Origin: Candidatus Humimicrobiaceae bacterium
GTDB lineage: Bacteria > Patescibacteriota > Minisyncoccia > Minisyncoccales > DG-74-1
DNA: 64,000 nt
Assembly: GCA_035530555.1 (NCBI GenBank)
Contig: DATKUR010000013.1
Coordinates: 239 to 64,238, forward strand
Reading direction: 5' to 3'
Part shown: positions 20,021 through 61,753 of the stretch, in pieces
Layout: every line of letters begins with the position of its first letter
Position numbering within the stretch: the stretch's first letter is position 1
Position numbers and translations under genes: made by a program
Notes under the pieces: model-generated
Databases searched by the model: none
What the model saw: the letters and a program-made list of their open reading frames with translations, nothing else
Told to the model about the DNA's origin: nothing

Positions 20021-20033
20021 AGTAAAATTATCG

Positions 20034-20789: not shown

Positions 20790-20830
20790 GTTCTATTTTA
20801 TTTTAATAACTTCTAATTAAATAGCAAATT

Positions 20831-20869
20831 AAAAAATAAACAGGTGGTGTCCGCAAGCGAACACCACCT
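20831..20869 (-). terminator. Rho-independent terminator after HD paralog A
   Basis: On the minus strand: AGGTGGTGT-tcgcttgcgg-ACACCACCT (perfect 9-bp stem) followed by GTTTATTTTTT. A degenerate copy of the same sequence follows HD paralog B at 18961..18996. Confidence 0.75.
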
Positions 20870-20905
20870 ATTATGTTCTTAGCCAAACATTCAGTTTAGC
20901 TTTAT

Positions 20906-22962: not shown

Positions 22963-22998
22963 CTAGCGCCTCCTTTATCGTATTTTTATTTACTGCCA

Positions 22999-23052
22999 TT
23001 GTGACAGCTGTTTAGAAACTTCTCAATTAGAGCAGCCAAACAGCTGTCACAA
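22999..23052. repeat. Perfect 15-bp inverted repeat with a 24-nt spacer in the methyltransferase 5' leader
   Basis: TTGTGACAGCTGTTT (22999..23013) and AAACAGCTGTCACAA (23038..23052). Each arm also contains the self-complementary octamer ACAGCTGT. Confidence 0.9.
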
Positions 23053-23092
23053 CATGATAGATATTTAAACTTTTGAAAGAACTGTAATGCTT

Positions 23093-23121
23093 ATTATAAC
23101 TTTTTATTCTTAAATTGTCAA
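23093..23121 (-). promoter_or_regulatory. Consensus sigma70-type promoter for the methyltransferase/HD operon
   Basis: On the minus strand: TTGACA (23121..23116), a 17-nt spacer, then TATAAT (23098..23093). The predicted leader is about 120 nt and contains the inverted repeat. Confidence 0.7.
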
Positions 23122-23144
23122 GGATTTGTAAAACGCAGATTTTG

Positions 23145-23176
23145 AAAACAAAAGAGCGTTCATCTCCGAACGCCCT
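23145..23176 (-). terminator. Rho-independent terminator after the phosphomevalonate kinase gene
   Basis: Minus-strand RNA: AGGGCGUUC-GGAGAU-GAACGCUCU (9 bp including one G-U) followed by UUUGUUUU. Confidence 0.75.
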
Positions 23177-23233
23177 TTATTTATTTGTAATAATCCTAAA
23201 ATCGGGTATTCCTCATTCTCTCCGTCTTCTTCT

Positions 23234-24277: not shown

Positions 24278-24330
24278 TTTTTTATTTCGTTATTTAGTAT
24301 TTATAATATTAAGAAAATCGACCTTGACCT

Positions 24331-26630: not shown

Positions 26631-26634
26631 GGTT

Positions 26635-27165
26635 TTATTTTCTCCGACTTTTAATTTTCTTAATAATAATTCTAAACCAAGGGGTGTATTTTTTTGGATT
26701 TTTCTTAATATCGGTCTTTAGCTCCTTTAATTTAACCCATCGCCAGTCAGCTACTTCTTTTTTGTCAGGCCTAGGTTTTCCGTCAAATTTACCGAGAAAA
26801 ACATGGTCAAATTCGTGCTCAATAAGACCGCCGAGCTTTGCTTTATAGATAAAATTAAAAGCTTCTTTTAATTTACAATTAATCCCCATTTCTTCCTTCA
26901 ACCTTCTTTCAGCCGCCAATTTCGCTTCTTCCTTCGGTCTGGGGTGAGAACAACAGGTGTTTGTCCAAAGTCCCGGAGAGTGATATTTTGATTTGGCTCT
27001 TCTCTGAATTAGGGTTTCCCCTTTCTTATTAAACAAGAGTATAGAAAAAGCCCGATGCAGTTTTCCTGCCAGGTGGGCTTCCATTTTTTCTTCTGTCCCA
27101 ATGGTTTCGTTTTTCTTGTTAACTAAAACAATTTTTTCCACTTTTTTTCTAAGTCTTTCTTTCAA
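26635..27165 (-). CDS. idi: Isopentenyl-diphosphate delta-isomerase, type 1 (Nudix)
   Basis: 176 aa. LHRAFSILLFNKKGETLIQRRAKSKYHSPGLWTNTCCSHP closely mirrors the E. coli Idi core. Confidence 0.9.
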   Translation of the reverse strand: MKERLRKKVEKIVLVNKKNETIGTEEKMEAHLAGKLHRAFSILLFNKKGETLIQRRAKSKYHSPGLWTNTCCSHPRPKEEAKLAAERRLKEEMGINCKLKEAFNFIYKAKLGGLIEHEFDHVFLGKFDGKPRPDKKEVADWRWVKLKELKTDIKKNPKKYTPWFRIIIKKIKSRRK

Positions 27166-28246
27166 TTAAATAATTAACGAATTCTTCTAACTTAGCTTTT
27201 GCCTTTGACTCGGGCAAAAATTTTTCGGCATCCTGCCAGCTCTCTTTAATAATCTTTCGGGCCACTTTTCTGGCATAATCTATGCTACCATATTTTTTGA
27301 TGATTTCTATCGCCTTTTTTCTTTCTTTCGGATTATCGGTGTGCTTATCCAAAATTGACAATAGTCTTTTCTCGTCTTTTCGATTGGCTTTTTTCAAGGC
27401 ATGAATAACAATTAAGGTTCTTTTGCCTTCCTTAATATCGTTGCCAAAGCTCTTGCCAAATTTTTTTCTTTCTTTTCCTTCTAGGGCCAGATCCAAAATA
27501 TCGTCTTGAATCTGAAAGGCAACTCCGATGGCCTCGGCCATCTTACCGATCTTTTCGGCCAGTTTATCGCTTCCTCCTGAAAGAACAACTGCCAGCTTAG
27601 CAGCTAAACGAGAAAGACAGCCGGTCTTGAAAGCACACATTTGTAAATACTCTTTTTGGTTAACTGTTTTAGCTTTTCCCTGGTGCCAATAAATATCTGT
27701 ACCTTGGCCAAGATGAATATTAATCATGTCTTGGGCGTAAGCCTTGTAAACCTTAGCTAGAACTTTAGGTTTAAATTTATTTTTACTTTTTATTAAGATT
27801 ATCAAGGGTAGGAAATATAAAAAATTCCCAGCATTTACGGCTACGTCAACGCCAAAAATTCTATGCAAACAAGGTTTTCCTCTTCTCAGTTCCCCTTGGT
27901 CTTCAACGTCGTCGGTTATAATGGAGCCATCATGCGCCAGCTCGGGAATGATCAAAAAGTCTTTAACTTTTCTAATGTCGCCACCGACGGCTTCAGTAAT
28001 CAGTAAAAATAAAGCTGGCCGCCATCTTTTTCCGCCTCGGTCCAAAAATTCATAAATGGGCTTAATAAGAACTTCTTGGGCCGCTTTTTGACTATAAAAA
28101 TAGCGGGGCTTGCCAAAAGCAAATTCTAGCCATTTTTTGTTTGCCTTCCGGGGAAGATATTTTTCAATCAGTTTGTCAATTTCCGACTTTTTCTTTTCCA
28201 GATATTCCTCTATTCCTTGGTGTTTTATTTTAGCTTGATCGGGCAT
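27149..28246 (-). CDS. Polyprenyl diphosphate synthase (GGPP-synthase-like)
   Basis: 365 aa. First Asp-rich motif DDVED with small residues (G, S) at positions -5/-4. Second motif FQIQDDILD. Confidence 0.88.
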   Translation of the reverse strand: MPDQAKIKHQGIEEYLEKKKSEIDKLIEKYLPRKANKKWLEFAFGKPRYFYSQKAAQEVLIKPIYEFLDRGGKRWRPALFLLITEAVGGDIRKVKDFLIIPELAHDGSIITDDVEDQGELRRGKPCLHRIFGVDVAVNAGNFLYFLPLIILIKSKNKFKPKVLAKVYKAYAQDMINIHLGQGTDIYWHQGKAKTVNQKEYLQMCAFKTGCLSRLAAKLAVVLSGGSDKLAEKIGKMAEAIGVAFQIQDDILDLALEGKERKKFGKSFGNDIKEGKRTLIVIHALKKANRKDEKRLLSILDKHTDNPKERKKAIEIIKKYGSIDYARKVARKIIKESWQDAEKFLPESKAKAKLEEFVNYLIERKT

Positions 28247-28250
28247 AGAT

Positions 28251-29393
28251 TTAGCGTTTACTGCAGGTATGGTTTCTATAAACCAAAATAAGCTTGAGGA
28301 ACTTAAAAATGTTTTTTCTTAAATTTGGCTTTGCTAAAAAATCTGGAAGGGCAGAAAGGCTTTTCAGATAAAAAATATCTTCCCCGGCTTTCTCTAGAAC
28401 CTCTCCAACTTCGTTCAGGCTTTTATTATCAAGTGAATACAAAACTTCCTGGGCTAGAAACAGTTTTTCATTAAAACAAGAAAGGAATTCAATTTTTGAA
28501 GGGTAAGAATCGACATCTTTGGAAAGAATACACTTGGCCGCCTGCTCTCCGGCGATCATGGCATTGCCAATTCCCCCACCCGTTATCGGATCAACCATAG
28601 CACCGGCATCGCCAACCAACAGCGCATTGTCTTTGACTAATTTTATGGATTTTTTCACCAGCGGAATTACGCCGCTGATATTTTTCAAAAAGCGGTAATT
28701 GCCCAAATCTTTTCTAATGGTGTTTTCCATAAAATCTTCAAGTTGTGCCCGAAGATTTATCTTTCTCCCAGAGCCCAAGCCGATATTAGCCGTATTTCTT
28801 GATTTTGGGAAAAACCAGGCATAACCTGAAGGGAATCTTTCTTGGTCAAAATAAAGTTTCATGGTATGACAATCCATTTCTTTTTCCACTTCAACCAAAT
28901 ATTGAAGACAGGGATAAATCGCTACTTTTTCTTGAAAAACCTTTCTTCTAATAATTGAAGCAGGGCCGTCTGCGCCAATAAGATATTTTGATTCAAACTC
29001 CTCACCGTCTTGGGTCTTAACCCTCCAAGTTTCACCTTCTTTCTTGACATCGGTTACTCTTTTTTGAAGACGAATTCTTGCCTGGCATTGGCTGGCTAAG
29101 AATTTTTCAAAATTTACCCTGTCTAAAATATAGCCCCCTTCTTTTGCCGAAAGATTGGCTGTTTTACCGTTTGGCAAAACTGCTTGACTCTTATCAACGG
29201 TAGTTGAAATCCAGTTTGGATCAGGTTTAATCCCAAGTCTGTCTAAAAAATATCTGGCTAATCCTTCGGCACACTGGACCGGCTTACCGATCTCCTCTTT
29301 CTGATCTAAGATCAAAGCATTGTTTAAGTATTTTCCGCAGACCAAACCGCCAGGACCGGCTCCAACAATGATTGTTTCAAAAAGACTTCCCAT
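28251..29393 (-). CDS. Geranylgeranyl reductase family flavoprotein
   Basis: 380 aa. N-terminal FAD motif IIVGAGPGGLVCG. GDAGAMVDPITGGGIGNAM is typical of GGR/digeranylgeranylglycerophospholipid reductases. Confidence 0.85.
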   Translation of the reverse strand: MGSLFETIIVGAGPGGLVCGKYLNNALILDQKEEIGKPVQCAEGLARYFLDRLGIKPDPNWISTTVDKSQAVLPNGKTANLSAKEGGYILDRVNFEKFLASQCQARIRLQKRVTDVKKEGETWRVKTQDGEEFESKYLIGADGPASIIRRKVFQEKVAIYPCLQYLVEVEKEMDCHTMKLYFDQERFPSGYAWFFPKSRNTANIGLGSGRKINLRAQLEDFMENTIRKDLGNYRFLKNISGVIPLVKKSIKLVKDNALLVGDAGAMVDPITGGGIGNAMIAGEQAAKCILSKDVDSYPSKIEFLSCFNEKLFLAQEVLYSLDNKSLNEVGEVLEKAGEDIFYLKSLSALPDFLAKPNLRKNIFKFLKLILVYRNHTCSKR

Positions 29394-29418
29394 ATAGTTT
29401 TATATAAAAAACACAATA

Positions 29419-30237
29419 TTACGAATAAATAGTTGCGAGAGATATCACAATATAAGAAAAAACCGCATAGGCATCAAAAATCCGATAATTCTTTTTAAAC
29501 ATAAGGAGTAAAAGAAAAAAAATAGTTAGAATAAGAAAGGGAAGTAAAAACTTTGAGAAAAAGAAAAAAAAGACTGGAAAAAGAACAAGAGGGTAGAAAA
29601 AGGCCAGGTATTTTAAAAGGTTTTCTGATTTTTTATAGCCAAGAAAGCAGACGGTAGTTTGCAGGCCAGCCCGGGAATCTGATTGATAGTCTTCTAAGTG
29701 GTTTCTTGTTTCCAGCATGGTTGATAAATAGAAAATAGAAAAAGCAATTAAATAGTGGGGGAGGGTCAGTTCTGGGCTAAAAATTAAGAAGGGGAAAATA
29801 AAAATTAAGGCTCCGGCAAAAAGACCATGAGAAATCAAGTCTAAAAAAGGCCTTGATTTCATTCTCAAAGGAGGGGCGGAATAAAAAAACCCGATCAAGC
29901 CGGCAATCAAAACGAACAAAAATATTTCTGTTCCAAAATAGCCCGACAAAAATAAAGCTAAAATGCCTGGCGAGACCGAAAGAAAAAAATTCTTCTTATT
30001 CTGAACCAAAAGACTCTTCACCTCTCTTTTTTCCCCGTCTTCCTTGATATCAAAGAAATTATTAACTGAAAACCCAAAGGCTAAAAGTAAAACACCGATG
30101 ATTGAGAAAAGTAAAATGTCCAAAAGAGGAAATAAAAAGCCTCGAGCAAGAATAAATCCTAAAATACCCAGCCCAAAATAAGCTCGCCAGTCTTTCATTC
30201 GATAATACTTAAAAAAAGACTTTAAATTAATTGACAT
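29419..30237 (-). CDS. UbiA-superfamily membrane prenyltransferase
   Basis: 272 aa, polytopic. Asp-rich motifs NNFFDIKED and NHLEDYQSD. Confidence 0.8.
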   Translation of the reverse strand: MSINLKSFFKYYRMKDWRAYFGLGILGFILARGFLFPLLDILLFSIIGVLLLAFGFSVNNFFDIKEDGEKREVKSLLVQNKKNFFLSVSPGILALFLSGYFGTEIFLFVLIAGLIGFFYSAPPLRMKSRPFLDLISHGLFAGALIFIFPFLIFSPELTLPHYLIAFSIFYLSTMLETRNHLEDYQSDSRAGLQTTVCFLGYKKSENLLKYLAFFYPLVLFPVFFFFFSKFLLPFLILTIFFLLLLMFKKNYRIFDAYAVFSYIVISLATIYS

Positions 30238-37597: not shown

Positions 37598-38287
37598 CTA
37601 TTTAAATTTTTCCTCTAGCTCTTTTAGAATTTTAGCTGCTAACTCTTTTCCGCCTAAGCCAAAAGAAAGACCCAAGGCAACTGAAATGGTAATTGCTACA
37701 CCGATGAAAATAACTAAAATCAAGGAGGGTGTTATTTTAAGCTGGTAGAGAATGGCCAAAATAGCAAAAAGCCAGATTGCCCAACGGATTGCCTTGCCTG
37801 AAAATCGCGAATAAGTTATTTTTTCCTTCTTCAGGGTACCAACCACAATCTTTTGAGAAAAATCAGCCAAAAAAACAGCCACAAGAAAAATTAAAATAGC
37901 AATAAAAATATTAGGATAATAACCAACCACTTTCCATAAAAATTGGCTGAAGGAAGTCAAGCCCAGGATTCTAGCGCTTAGAATTTCAGCAGCTATCGTC
38001 AAAAAAAGGATAACAAAAAACCATCTTACTATTTCGCCAAAAAACTTCGGAGCATTAAGCCGTGTATCTATTCTAGACAGAGATTCTTCTATGCCCATGC
38101 CCTTTAAAACTTGATTCAATCTAATTTTGCCCAGAAAATCGGCGGCTCTTTTTCCTAGCCATTGAGAAATAAGCCAGCCAACCAAGAAAAACAGAAAGGC
38201 TCCAAGGGCACAAAGCGGATAAGAAGCTGGAATTTGTATTAAGTATTTATAAACTTCTTCCCACATAAATAATTTATACGCTACCAT
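37598..38287 (-). CDS. Polytopic membrane protein (conserved-TM-helix type)
   Basis: 229 aa with 4-5 hydrophobic helices. No catalytic motif recognised. Confidence 0.55.
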   Translation of the reverse strand: MVAYKLFMWEEVYKYLIQIPASYPLCALGAFLFFLVGWLISQWLGKRAADFLGKIRLNQVLKGMGIEESLSRIDTRLNAPKFFGEIVRWFFVILFLTIAAEILSARILGLTSFSQFLWKVVGYYPNIFIAILIFLVAVFLADFSQKIVVGTLKKEKITYSRFSGKAIRWAIWLFAILAILYQLKITPSLILVIFIGVAITISVALGLSFGLGGKELAAKILKELEEKFK

Positions 38288-38838
38288 TTAGCGCGATTAA
38301 GCTTCAAATGATAACCGATTCTATTAGCAACTATATGTAATAAAAAGGTTAAAATAAAAAGGGTTATCCAGATTATTATCTCAATTTTTAAAATCGCTGT
38401 CAAGAAAATAGCCGAACCTATAACATAATTTGTCTGGTCGAATGGGATAAATCTGGCGCCCGGCGGCATCTTCAATCTTCGCTTGATAAAAGCAAAAAGT
38501 AGGTCGCCGAAAATTGCGCCGAGCGAAATCAAAAAGCCGAAAAGAAAAATATTAATCTGTTTATAATCTAATAGGGAAATTCTTTGGATTGCTGGAAATT
38601 GATAAAGATAACCCTGGACCAAGACCACCAAAAAACCGACACTCATCCCCAGTATTGCTCCCCGCCAGGATTTATGACTGCCGAGAATCGGCTGGCCTAA
38701 AAAATTTTTTCCGAAATCAATATCTTTATCTAAAAAATTAAAAAGGTTGGCCTTTCTGGCTAAAGGTGGGGCCATATTAGTAAAATAAGCGGGCAGGAAA
38801 AAGTAGAGACAAGATAAGATATATGTTAGAATACCCAT
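38281..38838 (-). CDS. carS: CarS-like (CDP-archaeol synthase family, formerly DUF46) membrane cytidylyltransferase homolog
   Basis: 185 aa. FFLPAYFTNMAPPLA, DIDFGKNFLGQPILGSHKSWRGAILG and GDLLFAFIKRRLKMPPGARFIPFDQTNY match the conserved blocks I recall for archaeal CarS. Confidence 0.72.
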   Translation of the reverse strand: MGILTYILSCLYFFLPAYFTNMAPPLARKANLFNFLDKDIDFGKNFLGQPILGSHKSWRGAILGMSVGFLVVLVQGYLYQFPAIQRISLLDYKQINIFLFGFLISLGAIFGDLLFAFIKRRLKMPPGARFIPFDQTNYVIGSAIFLTAILKIEIIIWITLFILTFLLHIVANRIGYHLKLNRAKW

Positions 38839-39600
38839 ATGAAATGCGATTTACACTGCCATACTGGCTATTCTTACGATAGCACAGCTGAGCCAGAAGA
38901 GATGATTGAGGCGGCGCTTCAAAAAGGGATAAACTGTCTGGCCATTTGCGACCACGGAGAAATTAAAGGCGCTCAGAAAGCAATCGAATACGCCAAAGAT
39001 AAGCCTATTTTAATTATACCGGGAATTGAAATAAAAAGTAAGGAAGGAGATATTTTGGGATTAAACATAAAAGAAGTTATTCCGAACAAATTATCAGCTA
39101 GTGAGACAATTAAAAAAATAAAGGGCTTAGGAGGGCTGGTAGTTATTCCCCATCCTTTTGGCTGGTCTTGCTCTTTTAGAGGAAACTTAGAGGACTTAAT
39201 TTCTAAAATAGACTGGTCCGAAGAGCTTCGTTCTTCTCGCGCTGAACCCAGTGATAACTGGGCGAAGAGGGAGAAGAAAACGAGGTTTTCTGCGACCGCC
39301 TCAGCTGGGGCCTTGGCAATTGAGATTTTAAATGCTTCAATATTCGGCCGTGGCAACAAAAAAGCTCTGATTTTCTCCCAAAAATACAACCTTTCTGTAA
39401 CAGCAGGATCCGACGCCCATTTCCCGAATTTTGTCGGCAGGGTCTATTTAGAAATTCCGGGCGATAATCTTTCTGTAGAAGAAGTTTTAAATCAGATAAA
39501 AAAAGGCGCTGCTAAAATCCATGGGAGAGAAGCTGACTGTTTGGAAAAAGCTGTCGATCATGTCAAAAGAAATATCGCCAGACTTAAAAATTTGATATAA
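38839..39600 (+). CDS. PHP-domain metal-dependent phosphoesterase carrying an in-frame insertion of about 33 aa
   Basis: 253 aa. MKCDLHCHTGYSYDS, AICDHG, VIPHPF and TAGSDAH motifs. The start codon abuts the carS start codon (CAT|ATG at 38836..38841). Confidence 0.85.
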   Translation: MKCDLHCHTGYSYDSTAEPEEMIEAALQKGINCLAICDHGEIKGAQKAIEYAKDKPILIIPGIEIKSKEGDILGLNIKEVIPNKLSASETIKKIKGLGGLVVIPHPFGWSCSFRGNLEDLISKIDWSEELRSSRAEPSDNWAKREKKTRFSATASAGALAIEILNASIFGRGNKKALIFSQKYNLSVTAGSDAHFPNFVGRVYLEIPGDNLSVEEVLNQIKKGAAKIHGREADCLEKAVDHVKRNIARLKNLI

Positions 39601-39681
39601 CGAAGCTTCGATTCGTTAAAATTGACCGTTCGATGAACTTTTAATTTACATTGTCTCTCGTTGAGTTTTCAGTTTAATTCT

Positions 39682-40281
39682 ATGTTAGAGGAAAAGAGAG
39701 AAAAATTTAAAAAAATTTCCAGCTGGACAGGAAATATTTTTTCTAAGTCTGGCTTAACGCCCAACCAATATACTCTAATCTCTTTTGTTTTTGTTTTAGT
39801 TGCTTTTTATTTTTTACTTAAGGAAAGGTTGGTTTGGGCCCTAATCTTCTTTTTATTGGCTACCTTTCTAGATTTTATTGACGGGGCAGTGGCAAAATTT
39901 TTGCAAAAAGAAACGAAAAAAGGTGCCTATTTGGACACCATTTGCGACCGCTACGTCGAGGGTATTATTTTATTAGGTTTTTTATTCTTATCGTTGTCTG
40001 ATTTTTTTCTACCGGCAAAAATCTGGATTTTTCTAGCTTTTTTCGGTTCTTTGATGACAACCTATGCTAAGGCAGCGGCTAAAGAAAAAGAGCTGGTAGG
40101 CCAAGAATTAAAAAAGGGCCTTTTGGGCCGAGCCGAAAGAATAATTTTAATTAGCCTGGCAATATCTCTTGGTATTTTTAATTTTTCCTGGATAATTTAT
40201 CCGATTGTTTTCCTGGCTATTTTTTCAAATATTACCGTTTTCCAAAGGATTTTTTTAGCTCTCACACCAAGCAACAATTAG
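39682..40281 (+). CDS. CDP-alcohol phosphatidyltransferase
   Basis: Motif DFIDGAVAKFLQKETKKGAYLDTICDRY, which fits DG(x2)A[RK](x8)G(x3)D(x3)D. I prefer ATG 39682 over the TTG at 39661. Confidence 0.85.
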   Translation: MLEEKREKFKKISSWTGNIFSKSGLTPNQYTLISFVFVLVAFYFLLKERLVWALIFFLLATFLDFIDGAVAKFLQKETKKGAYLDTICDRYVEGIILLGFLFLSLSDFFLPAKIWIFLAFFGSLMTTYAKAAAKEKELVGQELKKGLLGRAERIILISLAISLGIFNFSWIIYPIVFLAIFSNITVFQRIFLALTPSNN

Positions 40282-42877: not shown

Positions 42878-42948
42878 TGGACCCACCGAGAATCGAACTC
42901 GGACCTTACCCATGCGAAGGGTACGTAATACCGTTTTACTATGGGCCC
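42878..42948 (-). tRNA. tRNA-Ala (anticodon CGC)
   Basis: Hand-folded cloverleaf: GGGCCCA TA GTAA AACGGTA TTAC G TACCC TTCGCAT GGGTA AGGT CCGAG TTCGATT CTCGG TGGGTCC A. The G3:U70 Ala identity pair is present. No encoded CCA. Confidence 0.9.
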
Positions 42949-42950
42949 AT

Positions 42951-43021
42951 TCGGGGTGCTGGGAATTGAACCCAGACCGCAGAGTCCCGAACCCTGTATA
43001 CTACCGTTATACTACACCCCG
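42951..43021 (-). tRNA. tRNA-Pro (anticodon CGG)
   Basis: Acceptor CGGGGTG/CACCCCG, anticodon arm CAGGG-TTCGGGA-CTCTG, T arm CTGGG-TTCAATT-CCCAG. In my hand fold the D/anticodon junction is one nucleotide shorter than canonical. No encoded CCA. Confidence 0.8.
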
Positions 43022-43025
43022 CAGA

Positions 43026-44495
43026 TCACGTCACCCAGTATTTCTGCTTAGTCATTTCATCTCTTTTAATCTCCAGCTTTTCTCTTTCTTTTCTTGCCTC
43101 TTCGGCAAGTTTTTTTAACTTTTCGTCTGACAATTTGCTTAATTTCAAAATTTCTTTTTCTAAAAGCTCTTTTTTATTCTTTTGAGGGTCTTCCAAGGCA
43201 TATCCCAGCAGGACGTCCAAAATCTGCCCCACTTTAGGACCCGGCTCAATCCCTAAAGCTTTCATCACGTCTGAACCGGAAACCTTTAATGTCTTAACCG
43301 AAATCGGATCCTGAGCAACCTTATCAATTATATATCTTAAATGTCTGAGCTTATAAGGCTCGGCTTTCGGCACCCCAGAACCGATGCGGTCACACATTCT
43401 CAATTGTAGTAATTCTTCCATGTTTTCCGATCCTGCCTGGCGAACCAATCTCCTGACCGAGGAGTTGCCCACTTCATCTACGTTGTAGTAAAAAAGGTGA
43501 TATCTAACCAGTTTGGTTACTTTTTCAATATCTTTTTTAGAAAACTTCAAGCGGCTCAAAATCCTAACCGTCATTTTGGCGCTGACCACCTCGTGGTTGT
43601 AAAAAGTGGCGTCTGGTCCTTCGCCCCATTTTGTTTTTGGTTTGCCGATATCGTGGAATAAAGCAGCCAGTCTAACATATTTGTTAAAATTTTGCTTGGC
43701 GGCATAATCCAAGGAACGCAGATAATGCTCGTAACATCCATAGATATGATGCTTGTTTTGGGTAATTTTGTAGCCCTCTTCCAATTCCGGAATAATATAT
43801 TTCAGCAAACCGAGCTCCCTTAAAAGATCTATGCCCGAAGCTGCTCTCTCTGACATGATAATCTTCAGAAACTCATCCCTAATTCTCTCTTTTGATATTG
43901 CCTGCAACCAAGGAGAATTTTTTTTGACAGCTTGGGCTGTTCTTTTTTCAATTTGCCAACCCTCGCCGAGCGTAACGCTAAACCTCACTGCCCTTGCCAT
44001 ACGTAGGGCATCTTCATCAAAACGCTCTTCGACGTTGCCAACTGCCTTAATTATTTTTTCTTTTAAGTCTTTCTGCCCATTATACGGATCAACAATTTTA
44101 CGCCTTGCATTTCCTTCTTGAGTTTCCAAGGCCATCGCATTCACGGTAAAATCTCTTCTTGCCAAATCTTCCTGAATGGTTTTAGCAAATTTTATTTCAT
44201 CGGGATGGCGCTTATCAGTATACTTTGCCTCTGAACGATAGGTGGTAATTTCTATTTCTTTTAGCCTCGGGGTTTCGCTGTTAGCCTGGACAGTAACCGT
44301 AAAAAATTGATTGCTGTAAAAACTCTGAGGAAATATCTTTTGAATCTCTTTCGGTTTAGCGTTTGTCGCCACGTCCCAATCCTCCGGTTCCGCTCTCCTC
44401 AAAAAATCTCTGACACAGCCGCCGACAATATAAGCTTCGAAGTTATTTTTTTTTAACTGCTCAATGACGAATTTTAATTCTTTTGGGATTTCCAT
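43026..44495 (-). CDS. cca: CCA-adding tRNA nucleotidyltransferase with HD domain and a charged C-terminal tail
   Basis: YIVGGCVRDFLRRAEPEDWDVATNAKP and LFHDIGKP. The track start at 44531 is a TTG; the ATG at 44495 (MEIPKEL) is the more likely start. Confidence 0.9.
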   Translation of the reverse strand: MEIPKELKFVIEQLKKNNFEAYIVGGCVRDFLRRAEPEDWDVATNAKPKEIQKIFPQSFYSNQFFTVTVQANSETPRLKEIEITTYRSEAKYTDKRHPDEIKFAKTIQEDLARRDFTVNAMALETQEGNARRKIVDPYNGQKDLKEKIIKAVGNVEERFDEDALRMARAVRFSVTLGEGWQIEKRTAQAVKKNSPWLQAISKERIRDEFLKIIMSERAASGIDLLRELGLLKYIIPELEEGYKITQNKHHIYGCYEHYLRSLDYAAKQNFNKYVRLAALFHDIGKPKTKWGEGPDATFYNHEVVSAKMTVRILSRLKFSKKDIEKVTKLVRYHLFYYNVDEVGNSSVRRLVRQAGSENMEELLQLRMCDRIGSGVPKAEPYKLRHLRYIIDKVAQDPISVKTLKVSGSDVMKALGIEPGPKVGQILDVLLGYALEDPQKNKKELLEKEILKLSKLSDEKLKKLAEEARKEREKLEIKRDEMTKQKYWVT

Positions 44496-44566
44496 CAGCT
44501 TAATCTTATCTTGATTTCTCAAATTTTTCAATCGCTCAAACGGGAGTAAAGAATGAAGGAAAAAAC

Positions 44567-44595
44567 TTGTTTTCTTTGCCTTTTTTTATTATAAT
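44567..44595 (+). promoter_or_regulatory. Sigma70-type promoter upstream of tRNA-Arg
   Basis: TTGTTT (44567..44572), a 17-nt spacer, then TATAAT (44590..44595). The tRNA starts at 44606. Confidence 0.6.
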
Positions 44596-44605
44596 TAGTC
44601 CAAAC

Positions 44606-44678
44606 GCCCTCGTGGTGTAATGGATAACATATCTGTCTTCGGAACAGAGGACTCCAGGTTCAAATCCTGGCGAGGGCA
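44606..44678 (+). tRNA. tRNA-Arg (anticodon TCG)
   Basis: 73-nt cloverleaf: GCCCTCG TG GTGT AATGGATA ACAT A TCTGT CTTCGGA ACAGA GGACT CCAGG TTCAAAT CCTGG CGAGGGC A. No encoded CCA. Confidence 0.88.
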
Positions 44679-44680
44679 CT

Positions 44681-45103
44681 ATGAAAAAATTTCCAATTTT
44701 ATTTTTAATTGTTTTTTTAGGGGTGACATTTCTACCCTTGGTCTCTCGGGCAGCCTGCCCTACTACCGGATTGGTGCCGTGCGGAACACCTGATTGCCCG
44801 TGTAATTTTTGTCATCTTTTTGTCATGTTCCAGACAATAATTGATTTTGTTTTAGCTTATCTTGTTTTTCCGATTGCCACTCTGCTAATTATAATAGGTG
44901 GAATAATGTTCTTTCTCTACGCCGAAAATCCTCAGAAAGTAGAGCAAGCCAAGTCCCTGTTGACTGCGACAATAATCGGTTTAGTTGTAATTTTTTCTTC
45001 CTGGCTTGTTATAGGTCTATTTTTTACTGCCATCGGATTGTCTGATTTCGCCCTCTCGTTTACCGGCCCAGAAAATTGGTTCACGGTTGATTGCCCAATA
45101 TAG
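44681..45103 (+). CDS. Small VirB2/TrbC-like 'T4SS pilin' family protein
   Basis: 140 aa. Signal peptide (…PLVSRA|A), Cys motif CPTTGLVPCGTPDCPCNFC, two hydrophobic helices separated by YAENPQKVEQAKSLL, and a C-terminal Cys. It starts 2 nt after tRNA-Arg and stops 9 nt before tRNA-Lys. Confidence 0.75.
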   Translation: MKKFPILFLIVFLGVTFLPLVSRAACPTTGLVPCGTPDCPCNFCHLFVMFQTIIDFVLAYLVFPIATLLIIIGGIMFFLYAENPQKVEQAKSLLTATIIGLVVIFSSWLVIGLFFTAIGLSDFALSFTGPENWFTVDCPI

Positions 45104-45112
45104 CCCCTAATC

Positions 45113-45185
45113 GCCCCCATAGCTTAACTGGTAAAGCACCGGTCTCTTAAACCGAGGAGTCCAGGTTCGAGTCCTGGTGGGGGCA
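45113..45185 (+). tRNA. tRNA-Lys (anticodon CTT)
   Basis: 73-nt cloverleaf: GCCCCCA TA GCTT AACTGGTA AAGC A CCGGT CTCTTAA ACCGA GGAGT CCAGG TTCGAGT CCTGG TGGGGGC A. There is a C27-A43 mismatch. No encoded CCA. Confidence 0.88.
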
Positions 45186-45273
45186 CAATCCCCCGTACTA
45201 AAATTCAGCATAGGGGAAGCTACGAACAAGGGACTTTTTTTTATTAATAGAAATAGTATAATAAAATCGAATT

Positions 45274-45540
45274 ATGTTAACACCTGAAGAAAAAACAAAA
45301 ATTATTGAGAAGTACAAAAGCCACAAAACAGATACCGGCTCTGTTGAAGTTCAGATTGCTCTGTTAACCGAAGAGATTAAAGAATTGGTTCTGCATTTAA
45401 AATCTCATCCTAAAGATTTCCATTCAAAGAGAGGCTTGCTGAAAATGGTTGCCAAAAGAAGAAAATTCCTTAACCGCCTCAAAGAAGAAGACCCCAAGGG
45501 ATACAAGGATATTATAAAGCAAATAGGATTAAAGAAATAA
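45274..45540 (+). CDS. rpsO: 30S ribosomal protein S15
   Basis: 88 aa. DTGSVEVQIALLTEEIKELVLHLKSHPKDFHSKRGLLKMVAKRRKFLNRL. Confidence 0.95.
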   Translation: MLTPEEKTKIIEKYKSHKTDTGSVEVQIALLTEEIKELVLHLKSHPKDFHSKRGLLKMVAKRRKFLNRLKEEDPKGYKDIIKQIGLKK

Positions 45541-45541: not shown

Positions 45542-46045
45542 ATGGCGATAAAACATGTTGGCCAACGTGTGGGAATACTTATTGACGTCCAGAATCTTTA
45601 TCATTCAGCTAAAAACTTATATGGAGCGCGGGTTAATTTTCGGGAAATCCTAAAGCTGGCGGTTTCGGGAAGAAGCCTTATCCGGGTTTTCGCCTATGTA
45701 GTCAGAACCAAAACTGGCGAGGAAAAGCCATTTTTTGAAGCCTTAACCAAATTAGGAATTGAAACCAGAATTAGAGACCTTCAGGAATTTTATGGTGGCC
45801 TAAAAAAAGCCGATTGGGATGTTGGTATTACTGTTGATGCTATCAGAATAGCTCCTGACGTGGACGCGATTGTTTTGGCTTCTGGCGACGGTGATTTTTT
45901 ACAATTGGTTGAGTATTTAAAAAATCGCGGCAAAAGAATCGAGGTTGTCGCTTTCGGCAGATCGGCCTCAGCCAAATTAAAAGAGGCGGCCGATGAATTT
46001 GTTGACCTGGAAAAAGAGCCGGGGAAATATCTGTTAAAAAAATAA
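45542..46045 (+). CDS. NYN-domain (LabA-like) predicted ribonuclease
   Basis: 167 aa. VGILIDVQNLYHSA and IVLASGDGDFLQLVEYLKNRGKRIEVV. Only 1-2 nt separate it from rpsO upstream and pnp downstream. Confidence 0.8.
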   Translation: MAIKHVGQRVGILIDVQNLYHSAKNLYGARVNFREILKLAVSGRSLIRVFAYVVRTKTGEEKPFFEALTKLGIETRIRDLQEFYGGLKKADWDVGITVDAIRIAPDVDAIVLASGDGDFLQLVEYLKNRGKRIEVVAFGRSASAKLKEAADEFVDLEKEPGKYLLKK

Positions 46046-56487: not shown

Positions 56488-59400
56488 ATGGCTTCTTCTA
56501 AAAAAATTATCCTTTTACTCCTTTCTTTTTTCGTTTTAGGATTTATTTTGTTTCTTTCTAAGACGTCATTAGCGGCAGATACAACGCCAGTATATTGTAC
56601 TATTACCAACTGCGGAGCAAGCGAAAAGGTAGAATGTGGTGAAAAATATAGAAGATATTGTGAATCATGTTGCGATGAGGATGGAGGAGATTGTGAACCT
56701 TGTTGCCCTTGTTGTACTCAATATAGATGTAGAGGTAGTTGGACTCAATATAGGGCCAGTAGTGAAGATTGCGAACCCACCATCGAGAGAAGAGTCTGTA
56801 AAAGTGTCTGTAGTGGAGATGGCAGTGAATGTTGTTCTTGCGGCGGCTGTAAAATAGAGTGTGGCGTATGGGAAAGCAGCGAGAAGGTCGGTGCGTCAGA
56901 AACGTGTGAAATATGCAAAAGTTGGCAAAAAGCCGTAAAAAATTCCTGTGAAAATCCGGATAGTATAAACTGGTGCGAATCAAGGCCGGAATGTAAGTGT
57001 TGCGGAGAGTGTATCGATAAACCCGAAAATCCCGAATATTGTATGTCTCCTTCCTGCTCTGTAAAAGCGGAGGCGAATAATGTTTATTTGCCGGTAAAGC
57101 TGGATTGGAAAGATGTCCGGGGCTTTTGGAGCGGAGCATGGAGCGGTGGAGGATCTACTATACAAAACTACGCCGGCTGCCAAGAAGGTTACATAGATTT
57201 TTGCTGGGAAGAAGCTAAGGCGCTAAATCCCGGTTGGAGCTGCCAGGGAGAAATAACAGATGAATACTTAGTCTGCTTAAGACGTGAAACAAAAGAAAAC
57301 TGTCAAGACCTGCTACAAGAGGATGAAGCGTGTAAAGAAAATTGTCCAGTATTAGAAGAAGGAGGAGATGAATGTTACAAGCCAGGCGAATTTGTTAACT
57401 ATTACCAAATCGAAATTTGGGGGGGGAGTGAAAGTTTAATAGATTGCACAACCCTACAACCAATTGACCGCTACAGCGATTTTTTAGAGGCTTCGGAATT
57501 CTTTGCTCCCTGCCTCTGTTTTTACAAATCAGGCTGGACTTATAATTGGCACGTTAGGGGCTGTTGCGACGACCAAGAAAGCACTTGTGGTCCCTGGAGT
57601 GATACATGGACATTTCACACCAATCCTGCCCCTGAGCCCACCTCTCCTTATGATCCTGACTGGGCCGGTTCGGGAAAGGCAGAAAACGTCTCAGCTACCA
57701 CATCTCTTGAGTGGTGCGGCATTGCTGACACTAAAGAGTATCCCACCGAAACCGAATGCAGGGCTGCCTGGGCAGAAATCGGAGCCCAGTATTATTGGGA
57801 TTATCAATACAACACCTGCCGTGAATATTCCCACCAGCTTTTGCTTTATTTAATTGAAAGCGGCAACAAGGTCTGCCATCCATATGCAACGGAGCCAGGA
57901 GAAAAGGAATGCAACCCGGAATTACTAAAACCTTTCAGTCCGGGTTCTACTCCAAATTCAGCATATCACCCTACTGAATTCTCAAATCAGATTTACCGGT
58001 TATTTACAAAAAACTTCACTTATTTTTGGCAAGCAGCCACCTGTAAAGATGACCACGCCGGAAACTGTACGGAATTCGGTCAAGAATGGAAATTTTCCCT
58101 GGCTAATCTTGATTTCTCGTTGACGCAAGTGGTCTCTCCAGGAAATGACCCCGAGGGGGGAAAGCCCGTCGGTTTTCCGGTTAATATCCAGTGGCTAGCC
58201 AGTCTTGGAACAATGTCTTATTGGTACGAAATATACGAGAAAGGTTCGGCTGTCCCGAAAATAACAGGAACTACTACCCAGCCCGGTATTATCTTAGACT
58301 CTCCCCGATTAGATTTAAATACTATTTACAAATGGCGGGTGAAATCCTGTTGGAGCTATTACGCCGAAGCTGATAGATGTGAAAATAGTTGGTCGAATTT
58401 CTTTTATTTTAAAACTACTGGCCAGCCGCCAAAGCTTATTTCCCCGGAAAATAACGCCGCCGAATTAGTGATTCCGGTCGAGTTTCAGTGGGAAAATATA
58501 GGAGGGGCCAAGTCTTATGTCTTTAAAATTAACGGTGAAGAAAAAATAGTAGAAAGGAGGACAGAAATTAATCTTGATTATCCTGAATTACTCCAGCAAG
58601 AAAGCTATTCCTGGCAGGTTAAAACCTGCGCTAAAGCAAATGGACAACTCTGCGGAAACTGGAGTGATGAGTATTATTTTACAACTTTCAAATTAGGAAC
58701 ACCGGTCAATCTTTGGCCAAAAAACGGCTCTATTATTTCCACCACTGATACGCACGGTTTTTCCTGGGACGAAGTATTAGGAGCCGAATATAAATATTAC
58801 GAATTCAAAATTCAATATAAAAAGGCTTCGCCAGAAGAAAACAGGCCGGTGTGTCTAGAAGGAGAAGGAGGATTCACAACCAAAATTATTCCAAAAAATT
58901 CACTCTATAACCAGTTAAAATGTAATGGTGAATATGAATGGCAGGTCAGGGCTTGCCTGGCTGCAAATTGTGAAGAGCCTCAGTCAACAGGAGACTGGAG
59001 CGCTTTGTCAACATTAACTTTAGTTTCAAAAGAGACAACTCAGGAAGTTTCAGAAGAAATAATAAGGGAGGTTTTGAAAAATACAGTTTATGCTGATATT
59101 TTTGCAAAGATGCCGGAAGAAACCAGTAAAAGGGTGGCCGAAATAGTTTCGGCAAAAACATTGGAAATTCTGGAGAATTACCCTGAAATAGACTGGTTAA
59201 CTCAGGCAGATACAACCCCAGAAGTCCCGAGAATTATTTTAGAACAAGTACTGGCTGACGGATATACAGATCATACAGAAATAGCTAACGAAGTAGGTAA
59301 AAGAGTGGCGAAAAAAGTAGAAGAATTACTTAAAACAATGCCGGATGAATTATTAAAGAGGGTGACAGAAAGGCTCCCAGAAGAAATATTAAAGATCTCA

Positions 59401-59964
59401 GACCCATCTGAAATACCAACTATGTTAGAAACAATAATAGGAGAGGAATGGGATAAATTGTCAGCTGAAATAATAAGCCAGGCCTCAGCTATGGCTGAAG
59501 TACCAGAAGGAGTTTTAGAGGCTAAATTATTAGAGATGAAAGCGGAAGCAATAAATGATACCCTGGGCGAGGTGGCAAAGGTAATTGCGGGAATACCGGG
59601 GCAAGTTGAAATGAGGAAGGGATTGGTTCCATGCGGCAGAACTTCAAACAACCCTGATACCGACTGGGACGAAACCGAGAGGTGCCAAATCAAACATCTT
59701 TTTATACTGGTTTACGTAATCATCGATTTCTTTTTATGGAAAGTTATACCAATTATTTTAGTTTTACTGACGCTGGCCAGCGGGGCAATATTTTATTTTT
59801 CGCTACAGGCGCAGAATCCCGAGCCCTTGGCTACGGTAAAGTCACTTTGGAAGGCGGCGGGAATTGGCTTGGCCGTTGTTTTCCTTGCCTGGACAGCTAT
59901 TTCTTTATTCTTGGCCATATTTGATTATCAGGTAGGCCTTTTCGGCCCCTGGTGGCAAATTTAA
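56488..59964 (+). CDS. 1158-aa secreted Cys-rich multidomain protein ending in a VirB2/TrbC-like pilin module
   Basis: Signal peptide (…SKTSLA|AD). Then a block with about 30 Cys in about 165 aa. At least six Trp/Cys-bracketed FN3-like modules follow, for example FQWENIGGAKSYVFKING...YSWQVKTCAKANGQLCGNWSDEYYFTT. Next comes an acidic helical region. The protein ends with LVPCG...C plus two hydrophobic helices separated by AQNPEPLATVKSL (59623..59964), homologous by eye to 44681..45103. Confidence 0.8.
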   Translation: MASSKKIILLLLSFFVLGFILFLSKTSLAADTTPVYCTITNCGASEKVECGEKYRRYCESCCDEDGGDCEPCCPCCTQYRCRGSWTQYRASSEDCEPTIERRVCKSVCSGDGSECCSCGGCKIECGVWESSEKVGASETCEICKSWQKAVKNSCENPDSINWCESRPECKCCGECIDKPENPEYCMSPSCSVKAEANNVYLPVKLDWKDVRGFWSGAWSGGGSTIQNYAGCQEGYIDFCWEEAKALNPGWSCQGEITDEYLVCLRRETKENCQDLLQEDEACKENCPVLEEGGDECYKPGEFVNYYQIEIWGGSESLIDCTTLQPIDRYSDFLEASEFFAPCLCFYKSGWTYNWHVRGCCDDQESTCGPWSDTWTFHTNPAPEPTSPYDPDWAGSGKAENVSATTSLEWCGIADTKEYPTETECRAAWAEIGAQYYWDYQYNTCREYSHQLLLYLIESGNKVCHPYATEPGEKECNPELLKPFSPGSTPNSAYHPTEFSNQIYRLFTKNFTYFWQAATCKDDHAGNCTEFGQEWKFSLANLDFSLTQVVSPGNDPEGGKPVGFPVNIQWLASLGTMSYWYEIYEKGSAVPKITGTTTQPGIILDSPRLDLNTIYKWRVKSCWSYYAEADRCENSWSNFFYFKTTGQPPKLISPENNAAELVIPVEFQWENIGGAKSYVFKINGEEKIVERRTEINLDYPELLQQESYSWQVKTCAKANGQLCGNWSDEYYFTTFKLGTPVNLWPKNGSIISTTDTHGFSWDEVLGAEYKYYEFKIQYKKASPEENRPVCLEGEGGFTTKIIPKNSLYNQLKCNGEYEWQVRACLAANCEEPQSTGDWSALSTLTLVSKETTQEVSEEIIREVLKNTVYADIFAKMPEETSKRVAEIVSAKTLEILENYPEIDWLTQADTTPEVPRIILEQVLADGYTDHTEIANEVGKRVAKKVEELLKTMPDELLKRVTERLPEEILKISDPSEIPTMLETIIGEEWDKLSAEIISQASAMAEVPEGVLEAKLLEMKAEAINDTLGEVAKVIAGIPGQVEMRKGLVPCGRTSNNPDTDWDETERCQIKHLFILVYVIIDFFLWKVIPIILVLLTLASGAIFYFSLQAQNPEPLATVKSLWKAAGIGLAVVFLAWTAISLFLAIFDYQVGLFGPWWQI

Positions 59965-59975
59965 AAACTTAAGGC

Positions 59976-60629
59976 ATGAAAAGCACTCCCAAACTTTTAT
60001 TAATAGGGATATTTCTTTTAATTTTGGGGCTTGGCTTAGTTGGTTGGTGGCATTATAGAAGTTTTGAAAAAGCTCTTTCTGGGGTAAAGCCGTTTGCCCT
60101 TAATTTCCCCGAGCTTGACTTTGAGTCTGAAGAAGAGTCTCAAGAGCCGGAAACTTTCCAGGAATTTTTAGTACCGTCCGGCGATTTAAAAATCACTTAT
60201 CCGGACTCCTGGCAAAGAATCGAGGATTCCGAATTTAATTTTACAACCTTAGATACTGAAAATGCGAAAACCCTGTTTTACGCAATAAGAGTTAGACCAA
60301 AAGAAACAAAAATGGCCTGGTTAATAGTTCAGGAATTAAATTTTGGAGAAGAAAAAGGGTTGGAAAAAATTATTGAAAAGATGAGAACTGCTGGCGATGA
60401 CCGTGAAATTGAGACAGAAATCCAAGATTTAGAGGTTAAAGGAAATATTGTCCAGTTTGAAATAACTCAAAAACAAGCCGGTTATTCAACAAGAGGAAAA
60501 GAGAAAATTATCTTAACCAAAGATAGTATTTATTCGATATTGATTTTCTCTTTGGCCTCCGATTGGGATTTGTTCCGGGAAGAAACGGAGCAAATTTTAA
60601 ACTCAGCCCAGGCTTTGCTTGCAGAATAA
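59976..60629 (+). CDS. N-terminally membrane-anchored protein of unknown function (bitopic, alpha/beta ectodomain)
   Basis: 217 aa. One TM helix (LLLIGIFLLILGLGLVGWW), an acidic linker, then a globular domain of about 150 aa. It lies between the two pilin-like genes. Confidence 0.6.
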   Translation: MKSTPKLLLIGIFLLILGLGLVGWWHYRSFEKALSGVKPFALNFPELDFESEEESQEPETFQEFLVPSGDLKITYPDSWQRIEDSEFNFTTLDTENAKTLFYAIRVRPKETKMAWLIVQELNFGEEKGLEKIIEKMRTAGDDREIETEIQDLEVKGNIVQFEITQKQAGYSTRGKEKIILTKDSIYSILIFSLASDWDLFREETEQILNSAQALLAE

Positions 60630-60652: not shown

Positions 60653-61753
60653 ATGCCTAAAAAGACAAAATTGATAATTTCAATAACCCTCATCGGACTA
60701 CTGGCAATTGCTTCTTCAGCTCTGGCAGCCACCAGAACTGCCTGGCCCGACACGCCAGCGGGTCATCCTTTTCCTGACGAAGGAATTCCGGAATTAATCA
60801 GGTATTTTTATGAATGGGGAATTTTTCTCGGCGGACTATTGGTTTTTGTTGCTCTACTAATCGCTGGCTTCCAATATATGTCTTCGGCCGGCAATCCGGC
60901 GATGATGCAAGAGGCCAAAGACAGGATTAAGTCCGCCTTCATAGGATTAACTTTATTGTTGGGCTCCTGGCTGATTTTAAACACAATTAACCCTCAACTT
61001 ACTAATTTTCCCGAACTCGTGCTGGATTTATCCAGGGTCGCAGAAACCACTACCTCGAACTACATCGAAAGAAGCTCTTATCCCTGTGAGTGGGGTTATG
61101 TTTTTGGAGAGGAAGAATACAACGGCGAAGGGGGTTACATTGAGCCGGGCGGACCGGGCGGAACAATCAATGAATACCATCCAGGGGGATTTATTTTTAG
61201 TAACGGGGTCAGTTTCGATGAGCCAGAATCAGTGCAGGTCTGGCGACGTATCAATTGCTTCGGATATCCGAGTCCTGACGAAGAATCCGAAGCACAAGAT
61301 GAGCTGATTTTATCGATAAACCAGGCAATTGCTATGTGCCAAAATGAAAAATTAGCCGCGATGACGGAAGCCGAACTGGCCGCAGGAACACTGCCAGCTT
61401 GTAGCTCTACCGAAATAATAGCTATTGTAGAAGAAGACCTAAAAAAGAAATACGGAGGAGAAAGATTTGTAACGACAACCGACCCAGAAAAAGGCCCAAC
61501 GAACGATTGCCCTCCTTATAATATCATAGAAGAAACCTTTGATATTCCTTACAGCATTACTATTCCTAGGTATTTTATTAGTGACGGGAACTGTACTTTC
61601 CATCTGTCTGTGGGCACCTTGTTGGGGGGCATAGGAGGGTGTGGGGATAGAGTTTCTGAAATCTACGGTACCTATCCTAAGATTAAAGACTATACTGATA
61701 GAAATATAGAGTGCGTAACATTGGTGGCCACCCCTCGGGGGAAGGAGCTATAA
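60653..61753 (+). CDS. VirB2/TrbC-like pilin module with a C-terminal Cys-containing extension of about 250 aa
   Basis: 366 aa. Signal peptide (…SSALA|A). Two hydrophobic helices separated by SSAGNPAMMQEAKDRIKSAFIGL, the same helix-NP-x-AK-helix pattern as the other two pilin modules. A non-hydrophobic domain with about 8 Cys follows. Confidence 0.65.
   Translation: MPKKTKLIISITLIGLLAIASSALAATRTAWPDTPAGHPFPDEGIPELIRYFYEWGIFLGGLLVFVALLIAGFQYMSSAGNPAMMQEAKDRIKSAFIGLTLLLGSWLILNTINPQLTNFPELVLDLSRVAETTTSNYIERSSYPCEWGYVFGEEEYNGEGGYIEPGGPGGTINEYHPGGFIFSNGVSFDEPESVQVWRRINCFGYPSPDEESEAQDELILSINQAIAMCQNEKLAAMTEAELAAGTLPACSSTEIIAIVEEDLKKKYGGERFVTTTDPEKGPTNDCPPYNIIEETFDIPYSITIPRYFISDGNCTFHLSVGTLLGGIGGCGDRVSEIYGTYPKIKDYTDRNIECVTLVATPRGKEL

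Follow-up and report, generated by a model that had tools for sequence, protein, structure and literature searches.

In the 64,000-nucleotide (nt) stretch of contig DATKUR010000013.1 from Candidatus Humimicrobiaceae bacterium, which was analysed as a whole and is called the window here, a 140-amino-acid (aa) open reading frame (ORF) of the type IV secretion pilin family was found between two transfer RNA (tRNA) genes. Both tRNA genes, i.e., tRNA-Arg(TCG) and tRNA-Lys(CTT), lie on the same strand as the ORF and bound it with gaps of only 2 nt and 9 nt. tRNA-Arg, the pilin gene and tRNA-Lys are very likely co-transcribed from this one promoter-led unit. Co-transcription is the natural reading because nothing fits in the two gaps. 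The full model, i.e., one precursor in which tRNA end-processing would release a near-leaderless messenger RNA (mRNA), is considered somewhat more likely than not.

The promoter of the unit was read at 44567..44595 of the forward strand. It has a -35 element TTGTTT (44567-72), a 17-nt spacer, and a -10 element TATAAT (44590-95) that ends 10 nt before tRNA-Arg. The predicted transcription start, at about 44602, is 3-5 nt upstream of the tRNA. The consensus promoter scan of the window did not list this promoter because its -35 half matches just three of six positions. A TTGnnT ... (TG)TAAAAT/TATAAT pair is placed 7-13 nt upstream of tRNA-Arg in most orthologous loci, and this conservation of position and sequence makes the promoter credible. 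The initial annotation of the stretch had described it as a strong tRNA promoter. Its presence and its position before the tRNA were borne out, whereas its strength is an assumption.

The tRNA-Arg(TCG) gene occupies 44606..44678 of the forward strand, with A44678 as the discriminator base (ARAGORN; Rfam RF00005, 67.3 bits). It is followed by the dinucleotide CT (44679..44680, forward), which would make up the entire 5' untranslated region (UTR) should cleavage occur right behind the discriminator. The ORF runs on the same strand at 44681..45103, from ATG 44681 to TAG 45101-45103, and encodes a protein with a signal peptide, a stretch rich in Cys, and a hairpin of two helices. The 3' junction CCCCTAATC (45104..45112, forward) has 9 nt and would be the entire 3' UTR after RNase P cleavage. 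The tRNA-Lys(CTT) gene begins with its G1 at 45113 and ends at 45185 (forward; ARAGORN; Rfam, 70.1 bits). No CCA is encoded in either tRNA, and the discriminators are followed by CTA and CAA. ARAGORN and Rfam placed both tRNAs identically and at the ends given by the initial annotation, and its distances, i.e., 2 nt from the discriminator to the ATG and 9 nt from the stop codon to tRNA-Lys, were exact.

In the proposed mechanism, a single sigma-70-type promoter would give the three genes as one precursor that starts near 44602. Ribonuclease (RNase) P would cut before G44606 and before G45113, and an RNase Z-type endonuclease would cut after A44678 and after A45185. In Bacillus subtilis, tRNAs that lack an encoded CCA are as a rule matured by RNase Z. 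The absence of CCA from both tRNAs and the adjacent gene of the CCA-adding enzyme (cca) fit this route, and the enzyme, encoded next door, would complete the tRNAs. For a single transcript to give both the tRNA and the mRNA, the cut has to be endonucleolytic and precise, because exonucleolytic trimming of the tRNA 3' end would destroy the message. The freed mRNA would span 44679-45112, i.e., about 434 nt with a 2-nt 5' UTR, a 9-nt 3' UTR and a 5'-monophosphate, and would be translated by leaderless initiation. Leaderless translation appears to be usual for the operon-first genes of this genome, which is poor in Shine-Dalgarno sites. We infer these cleavages and the leaderless translation from the sequence. 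The minimum-energy fold of the precursor retains the tRNA-Arg cloverleaf.

The conservation of the gene order was examined in relatives. Seventy-nine loci were obtained from a family-alignment scan of one genome per species, seven from a metagenome scan with a single protein as the query, and nine more from exact-protein look-ups. A locus was counted as flanked when tRNA-Arg(TCG) preceded and/or tRNA-Lys(CTT) followed the gene on the same strand. Flanked loci made up 49 of the 60 close-homologue loci and none of the 34 distant-paralogue loci (Fisher's exact p = 2.3e-16). The distant-paralogue loci are tandem arrays of 5-11 pilin genes. The wider order was also kept, with tRNA-Ala, tRNA-Pro and cca on one strand and tRNA-Arg, pilin, tRNA-Lys and rpsO on the other. 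The lineages named for these loci include Parcubacteria DG_74_1, Paceibacterota, Nealsonbacteria and Yanofskybacteria. The tRNA-pilin-tRNA order persists down to 33% protein identity, despite expansion of the spacers and insertion of foreign ORFs. Synteny in related genomes, which the initial annotation had offered as a check, was thus clearly confirmed, with about 49 loci spread over many lineages of Parcubacteria. The conserved order exceeds chance, whereas tight spacing by itself is ordinary in this compact genome.

Some close homologues without the flanking tRNAs are also placed tightly behind other genes. Three of them begin 0-7 nt after the stop codon of clpP (loci L003, L011 and L026), and one begins 13 nt after tRNA-Leu(TAG) (L042). 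The homologues in L004 and L025 are located between tRNA-His and other tRNAs.

At the 5' junction, tRNA ends across the loci were set by acceptor-stem pairing. Of 44 loci, 15 had a gap of 1-3 nt between the discriminator and the start codon, and 21 had one of at most 10 nt; the gap of the others was 17-311 nt. The junction of CT or of 1-3 nt was found in L001, L008, L017, L045, L080-82, L087-89 and L091-94, and every tight-junction locus starts with ATG. In a neighbour-joining tree of the cca protein, tight junctions occupied at least four separate branches (the clade of the window, L045, L017, and L008), interleaved with gapped lineages. Twelve gapped orthologues, i.e., L016, L020, L022, L009, L041, L024, L033, L019, L032, L007, L005 and L023, have a TATAAT-like hexamer 6-9 nt upstream of the start codon, most often at 8 nt. 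The usual distance from a -10 box to the transcription start is 6-7 nt, so the leaders of these gapped orthologues are predicted to be 0-3 nt long, the same as in the product of tRNA cleavage. No clear Shine-Dalgarno site was found before the pilin start in any orthologue. Because a leaderless-type -10 box appears when the gap widens, the near-zero leader appears to be preserved by two different mechanisms across the clade. Together with the scarcity of Shine-Dalgarno sites, this geometry independently favours the leaderless mRNA proposed in the initial annotation, whose interpretation is supported in part and considerably strengthened by the comparative data.

The initial annotation had stated that the 2-nt junction leaves no room for a Shine-Dalgarno site. 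The statement is right for the processed RNA, but not for the precursor, where GAGG (44672-75) in the 3' strand of the tRNA-Arg acceptor stem is located 5 nt upstream of the ATG. This GAGG would be base-paired within the tRNA. The missing site is no oddity but the rule in this genome; among 60 window ORFs, only about 3 have a good Shine-Dalgarno site, and a few genes use GGAGG.

On the 3' side, the distance from the stop codon to tRNA-Lys was measured in 43 loci; its median was 11 nt, and 21 loci had 0-11 nt. The stop codon abuts G1 of tRNA-Lys, with 0 nt between them, in L017, L018 and L035. In L025 (~3838-3840), the G of the pilin TAG is at the same time G1 of tRNA-Arg(CCT), and in L007 (3403-3429) the reading frame meets no stop before tRNA-Lys and continues for 27 nt inside the tRNA. 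The window has a complete TAG followed by 9 nt, unlike incomplete stop codons that are completed after cleavage. A -10-like hexamer was absent from the 20 nt before tRNA-Lys in most loci, and for this reason the expression of tRNA-Lys seems to rely on transcripts that pass through the pilin gene.

Decayed fragments from the 5' part of tRNA-Lys were found just past the stop codon in the expanded gaps of L020, L016, L001, L013, L083, L090 and L091, and copies of the tRNA-Arg 3' end were found in two expanded 5' spacers. Because the relic tRNA-Lys fragments lie where the gap has expanded, they suggest that the tight arrangement is older, and the borders of the tRNAs may be prone to recombination. 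An Rfam scan at a permissive E-value of 11 loci with expanded spacers detected no tRNA-like or other structured RNA in the spacers. In L016 (2043-2792), L020 (3638-4414) and L090 (963-1733), a conserved ORF of about 250 aa with an N-terminal helix-turn-helix (HTH) has been inserted after the pilin stop codon and before tRNA-Lys, with partial tRNA-Lys copies on both sides. This ORF looks like a mobile or homing gene that targets tRNA-Lys. It carries the motif LYWAEGSK, of which the part YWAEGSK may be LAGLIDADG-like; Pfam gave weak HTH hits alone, and a PDB search of the inserted ORF returned nothing.

The loci L091 and L092 have an identical pilin protein and different sequences past the stop codon. 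In L091, the spacer is 118 nt long and includes a decayed copy of tRNA-Lys. In L092 the spacer is 9 nt, and the 5' acceptor strand of its tRNA-Lys, CTCCCGT, pairs poorly. The difference is either strain-level recombination or assembly collapse.

Downstream of tRNA-Lys, a run of eight T (45235..45242, forward) is a possible end of the unit and has no canonical hairpin directly upstream. The fold at this site was not significant (z-score -0.23) and the terminator scan made no call there, so no terminator is claimed in the window. Terminators with a hairpin and a T-run are clear after tRNA-Lys in many orthologues. Within 44606-45185, no terminator was called by the scan. Pairing is possible between GGGGG, the 3' acceptor strand of tRNA-Lys, and a CCCCC located 6 nt further on in the trailer GGGGGCACAATCCCCC (45178-45201). 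It could also form in L001, and the motif is degraded in L082 (CAATCCCTTG).

The ORF was assigned to the T4SS_pilin (VirB2/TrbC-like) family by Pfam (PF18895; 38.8 bits, above the cut-off of 26.6; E = 1e-9), and the TrbC profile (PF04956) scored just 17.7, below its cut-off. Forty-eight homologues with 36-99% identity were found, all from uncultivated Parcubacteria/Patescibacteria sources. The residues P33, C34, G35, C41, C44 and C138 are invariant among them. The pairwise ratio of nonsynonymous to synonymous substitution rates (dN/dS) between the ORF of the window and four relatives was 0.10-0.25. Conserved homologues and this range of dN/dS indicate a genuine gene under purifying selection; the possibility that the ORF is not a gene was ruled out on the same grounds, and the conservation check of the initial annotation thus came out in favour of the gene.

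In the AlphaFold2 model (predicted local distance difference test score 77.5), helices were placed at residues 4-21, 43-79 and 84-117, i.e., a signal-peptide helix and a two-helix hairpin. As modelled, this is the topology of VirB2. Foldseek with the model against PDB gave nothing significant, the Aeropyrum conjugation pilus 8dfu being ranked 11th with E = 8.9, and a sequence-profile search of PDB with the pilin gave no significant match. The name pilin denotes membership of the family, assigned by Pfam and the predicted topology, and the function as a pilus subunit is putative. Genes for type IV secretion, e.g., virB4 and virB6, were not found by Pfam among the approximately 60 ORFs of the window. 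Another protein with the T4SS_pilin domain (366 aa) is encoded at 60653-61753 and has a long C-terminal extension that contains Cys. It is preceded by two large ORFs without a Pfam match (1158 aa and 217 aa; 56488-60629).

Three public protein calls of the family, P0009, P0014 and P0024 (L088, L089 and L090), begin inside tRNA-Arg. Their N-terminal sequence 'MDSVQDFGSWGEG...' comes from translation of the tRNA, since this is in frame with the ORF at a distance of only 2-5 nt. Such ORF calls that run into the upstream tRNA are a recurrent annotation artefact.

Several observations weigh against the proposed excision of the mRNA by tRNA processing. Genes for RNase Z, the RNase P RNA and the RNase P protein were not found in the 64-kilobase (kb) window. 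The unit may run on into rpsO, because the T-run after tRNA-Lys lacks a proper hairpin. An mRNA with a 5'-monophosphate and without a hairpin should be unstable. In L094 (~1405-1411) the junction reads A-CC-ATG, so that an encoded CCA overlaps the start codon; CCA is an anti-determinant for RNase Z, as known for the B. subtilis enzyme. A promoter-like site was also listed by the consensus scan inside the ORF (44809..44838, forward; TTGTCA, 18 nt, GACAAT) and could feed tRNA-Lys separately. Among 28 orthologues, 13 have such a site at the corresponding place, and its -35 half is dictated by invariant Phe-Cys-His codons. Finally, the junction could be compaction without a selected role, because tight packing is general here, e.g., 4 nt from cca to tRNA-Pro.

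If the junction is a by-product of compaction, the three genes would be co-transcribed only through the loss of spacers in a streamlined genome, their order would last as such genomes rearrange little, and tRNA-defined ends would bring no advantage. The mRNA may then form inefficiently, each precursor giving either tRNA or mRNA. The intergenic gaps of the window, mostly -23 to +55 nt, speak for it, as do the 2 nt between tRNA-Pro and tRNA-Ala, the close homologues placed just behind clpP or tRNA-Leu, and the 5' gap that varies from 1 to 311 nt. However, the order is kept at low protein identity although spacers expanded and ORFs were inserted, a leaderless-type -10 box arises at the right distance once the gap widens, and the relic tRNA fragments mean that the junctions were repeatedly disrupted with the gene still in place. 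The explanation is regarded as unlikely. The tight arrangement is not peculiar to the pilin gene; it is the style of the whole locus, found also between cca and tRNA-Pro and, in L009 and L022, between tRNA-Lys and rpsO. The flanking tRNAs could also be sites of integration or exchange for a recombination cassette. Partial copies of the tRNA-Arg 3' and tRNA-Lys 5' ends in expanded spacers, the HTH ORF inserted before tRNA-Lys, the identical pilins of L091 and L092 with different tRNA-Lys regions, and the close homologues in other tRNA contexts (L004, L025 and L042) would agree with this. Against it, no integrase was found, a single gene occupies the same site in about 49 loci, and the groupings of pilin loci agree with the cca tree where both were compared. 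A cassette is very improbable, and it addresses the origin and turnover of the locus rather than its expression, so that it is compatible with excision by tRNA processing.

Two other explanations change how the pilin message is made or read. The ORF might be translated while still joined to tRNA-Arg, with the acceptor-stem GAGG as its Shine-Dalgarno site. Every tight-junction locus has GAGG or GGGG 4-6 nt upstream of its ATG, and this follows from the tRNA-Arg acceptor sequence GCCC(T/C)CG; the few genes of the window with GGAGG are a further point in its favour. On the other hand, GAGG is locked in a 7-base-pair (bp) G+C-rich helix, the same start codon is used in gapped orthologues without a Shine-Dalgarno site, and about 95% of the window genes do without one. 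Translation of the uncut precursor is considered very improbable. Least credible is a promoter of the pilin gene hidden inside tRNA-Arg, which would make the mRNA a primary transcript. The T-loop TTCAAAT resembles a -10 box weakly (4/6) and is 15 nt before the ATG, but it lacks the key A at position 2, it is a sequence universal among tRNAs, and the promoter scan lists nothing there. Such a promoter must also work with the TTCGAGT or TTCGACT loops of other loci. The candidate was rejected, as no -10 box with A at position 2 is present.

The arrangement resembles the tRNA punctuation of mitochondria, which was reportedly described by Ojala, Montoya and Attardi in 1981. In both, an mRNA lies within a few nt of same-strand tRNAs on both sides, and RNase P and RNase Z are predicted to excise the message here. 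The resulting mRNA would likewise have virtually no 5' leader and would need leaderless initiation, and in single relatives (L017, L018, L035 and L025) the stop codon abuts or overlaps a tRNA. However, the pilin unit is found on a free bacterial chromosome and is short with its own promoter, not a genome-length polycistron. It bounds one to three mRNAs per locus, has a complete stop codon, and is predicted from the sequence. Unlike in mitochondria, we know of no polyadenylation for this unit. The arrangement is thus not a strict member of the mitochondrial class. As a tentative interpretation, to which we give somewhat less weight than to the model itself, the locus may be a Parcubacteria counterpart of mitochondrial punctuation. 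The mRNA of a probably abundant envelope protein would be excised by tRNA processing and translated leaderless from a 5'-monophosphate end, the tRNA cut and transcription starting at the ATG would be interchangeable, and tRNA-Lys(CTT) would need transcription of the pilin gene.

Mixed operons of tRNA and protein genes are known in bacteria, such as thrU-tyrU-glyT-thrT-tufB of Escherichia coli. In E. coli secG-leuU, the promoter and terminator are shared, and the tRNA that lies downstream is cut off the mRNA by RNase P (PMC2241853, PMC2190699). As in those operons, tRNA and protein genes are here on one strand with a shared promoter, which is predicted. The E. coli operons have leaders with ribosome-binding sites, encoded CCA and exonucleolytic 3' maturation, whereas the pilin loci have a 5' junction of 1-3 nt, tRNAs without CCA, and an mRNA between two tRNAs. 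The locus would belong to the broad bacterial class of mixed tRNA-mRNA operons, without the mRNA leader of its members. The leaderless mRNAs of Actinobacteria, e.g., Mycobacterium, and of archaea (PMC4633059) have the start codon at the 5' end or a few nt from it and no Shine-Dalgarno site, as is predicted for the pilin message. Unlike theirs, the predicted 5' end here would come from cleavage and carry a monophosphate, not from transcription initiation.

Co-transcripts of a tRNA with a second RNA are also on record. A tRNA and a small nucleolar RNA (snoRNA) are co-transcribed in Thermococcus and Nanoarchaeum, with release by RNase Z proposed in Thermococcus (PMC4247193), and dicistronic genes of tRNA and 5S ribosomal RNA form one transcription unit in Yarrowia (PMC2566860). 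Unlike the pilin message, the released RNA in these cases is non-coding, and the cases are archaeal or eukaryotic. VirB2-like pilin genes for type IV secretion have been reported in tandem arrays of 2-11 genes in Patescibacteria (bioRxiv 10.1101/2025.01.22.634366). The pilin of the window shares the family PF18895 and the phylum with them, and the distant paralogues of the present comparison are those tandem arrays. It differs in being a single gene in a neighbourhood of RNA metabolism (cca, rpsO and pnp) with neither virB4 nor another gene of the secretion system in 64 kb. The word tRNA is absent from the main text of that report. Full-text literature searches on tRNA punctuation or leaderless mRNAs in bacteria or the Candidate Phyla Radiation (CPR), on PF18895 and on leaderless messages made by RNase Z yielded no account of the arrangement.

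If transcript mapping confirms the model, the locus would have a big meaning as a natural and conserved bacterial mRNA that is leaderless and has both ends set by tRNA processing, which is usually taught as a peculiarity of mitochondria. It would then be a system for testing how leaderless mRNAs with a 5'-monophosphate are translated and stabilised. The few Shine-Dalgarno sites and the -10 boxes 6-9 nt from start codons would point to a general rule for these uncultivated CPR bacteria. The locus also singles out one VirB2-like paralogue that is linked to housekeeping genes, probably highly expressed, and distinct from the secretion-system arrays. It is relevant for annotation as well, as gene callers extended the ORF into the upstream tRNA in public data.

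The cca gene is divergent from the tRNA-Arg unit and was called at 43026..44531 of the reverse strand, with the Pfam domains PolyA_pol, HD and tRNA_NucTran2_2. Its true start is likely ATG 44495 rather than TTG 44531. The consensus scan found its promoter as TTGAAA, 17 nt and TAAGAT, with the -10 box 7 nt before ATG 44495. In several first genes of the window, among them cca if ATG 44495 is its start, the -10 box is located 6-9 nt upstream of the ATG. The genome is compact and poor in Shine-Dalgarno sites, and leaderless mRNAs are apparently frequent in it. The cca gene is kept upstream of tRNA-Arg in 26 loci. In the window, its stop codon is followed after 4 nt by tRNA-Pro(CGG) (42951-43021, reverse strand), and tRNA-Ala(CGC) (42878-42948, reverse strand) comes 2 nt later; both were identified by ARAGORN and Rfam. 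The cca, tRNA-Pro and tRNA-Ala genes are a second mixed mRNA-tRNA unit of the locus, conserved in many loci. The sequence 3' of tRNA-Ala contains a bulged hairpin (about 12 bp) that is not followed by a T-run, and a UPF0102 gene is placed 37 nt past this tRNA.

The rpsO gene for ribosomal protein S15 (Pfam), together with the TATAAT box upstream of it, occupies 45257..45540 of the forward strand. Its ATG is at 45274, and the TATAAT (45257-62) is placed 11 nt before it. The gene follows tRNA-Lys in 30 loci, and the gap is just 5 nt in L009 and L022. In the window, the order continues with a NYN-domain gene and pnp (Pfam). The NYN-domain gene (45542-46045, 167 aa), which has a PIN-like nuclease fold, is kept between rpsO and pnp and was also found in L087 and L091-L094. 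Its product may be a candidate RNA-processing enzyme in these genomes.

An archaeal-type gene set for isoprenoid ether lipids was found at 16881-30237 and 38281-40281 of the window, mostly on the reverse strand. It comprises mevalonate pathway genes, i.e., hydroxymethylglutaryl-coenzyme A (HMG-CoA) synthase and reductase, GHMP kinases and diphosphomevalonate decarboxylase. Polyprenyl synthase, geranylgeranyl reductase, UbiA prenyltransferase, CarS-like cytidine diphosphate (CDP)-archaeol synthase and CDP-alcohol phosphatidyltransferase are also encoded in it. Beside this set, bacterial lipid genes were predicted, i.e., three copies of PlsY, FakA/DegV and acetyl-CoA carboxylase.

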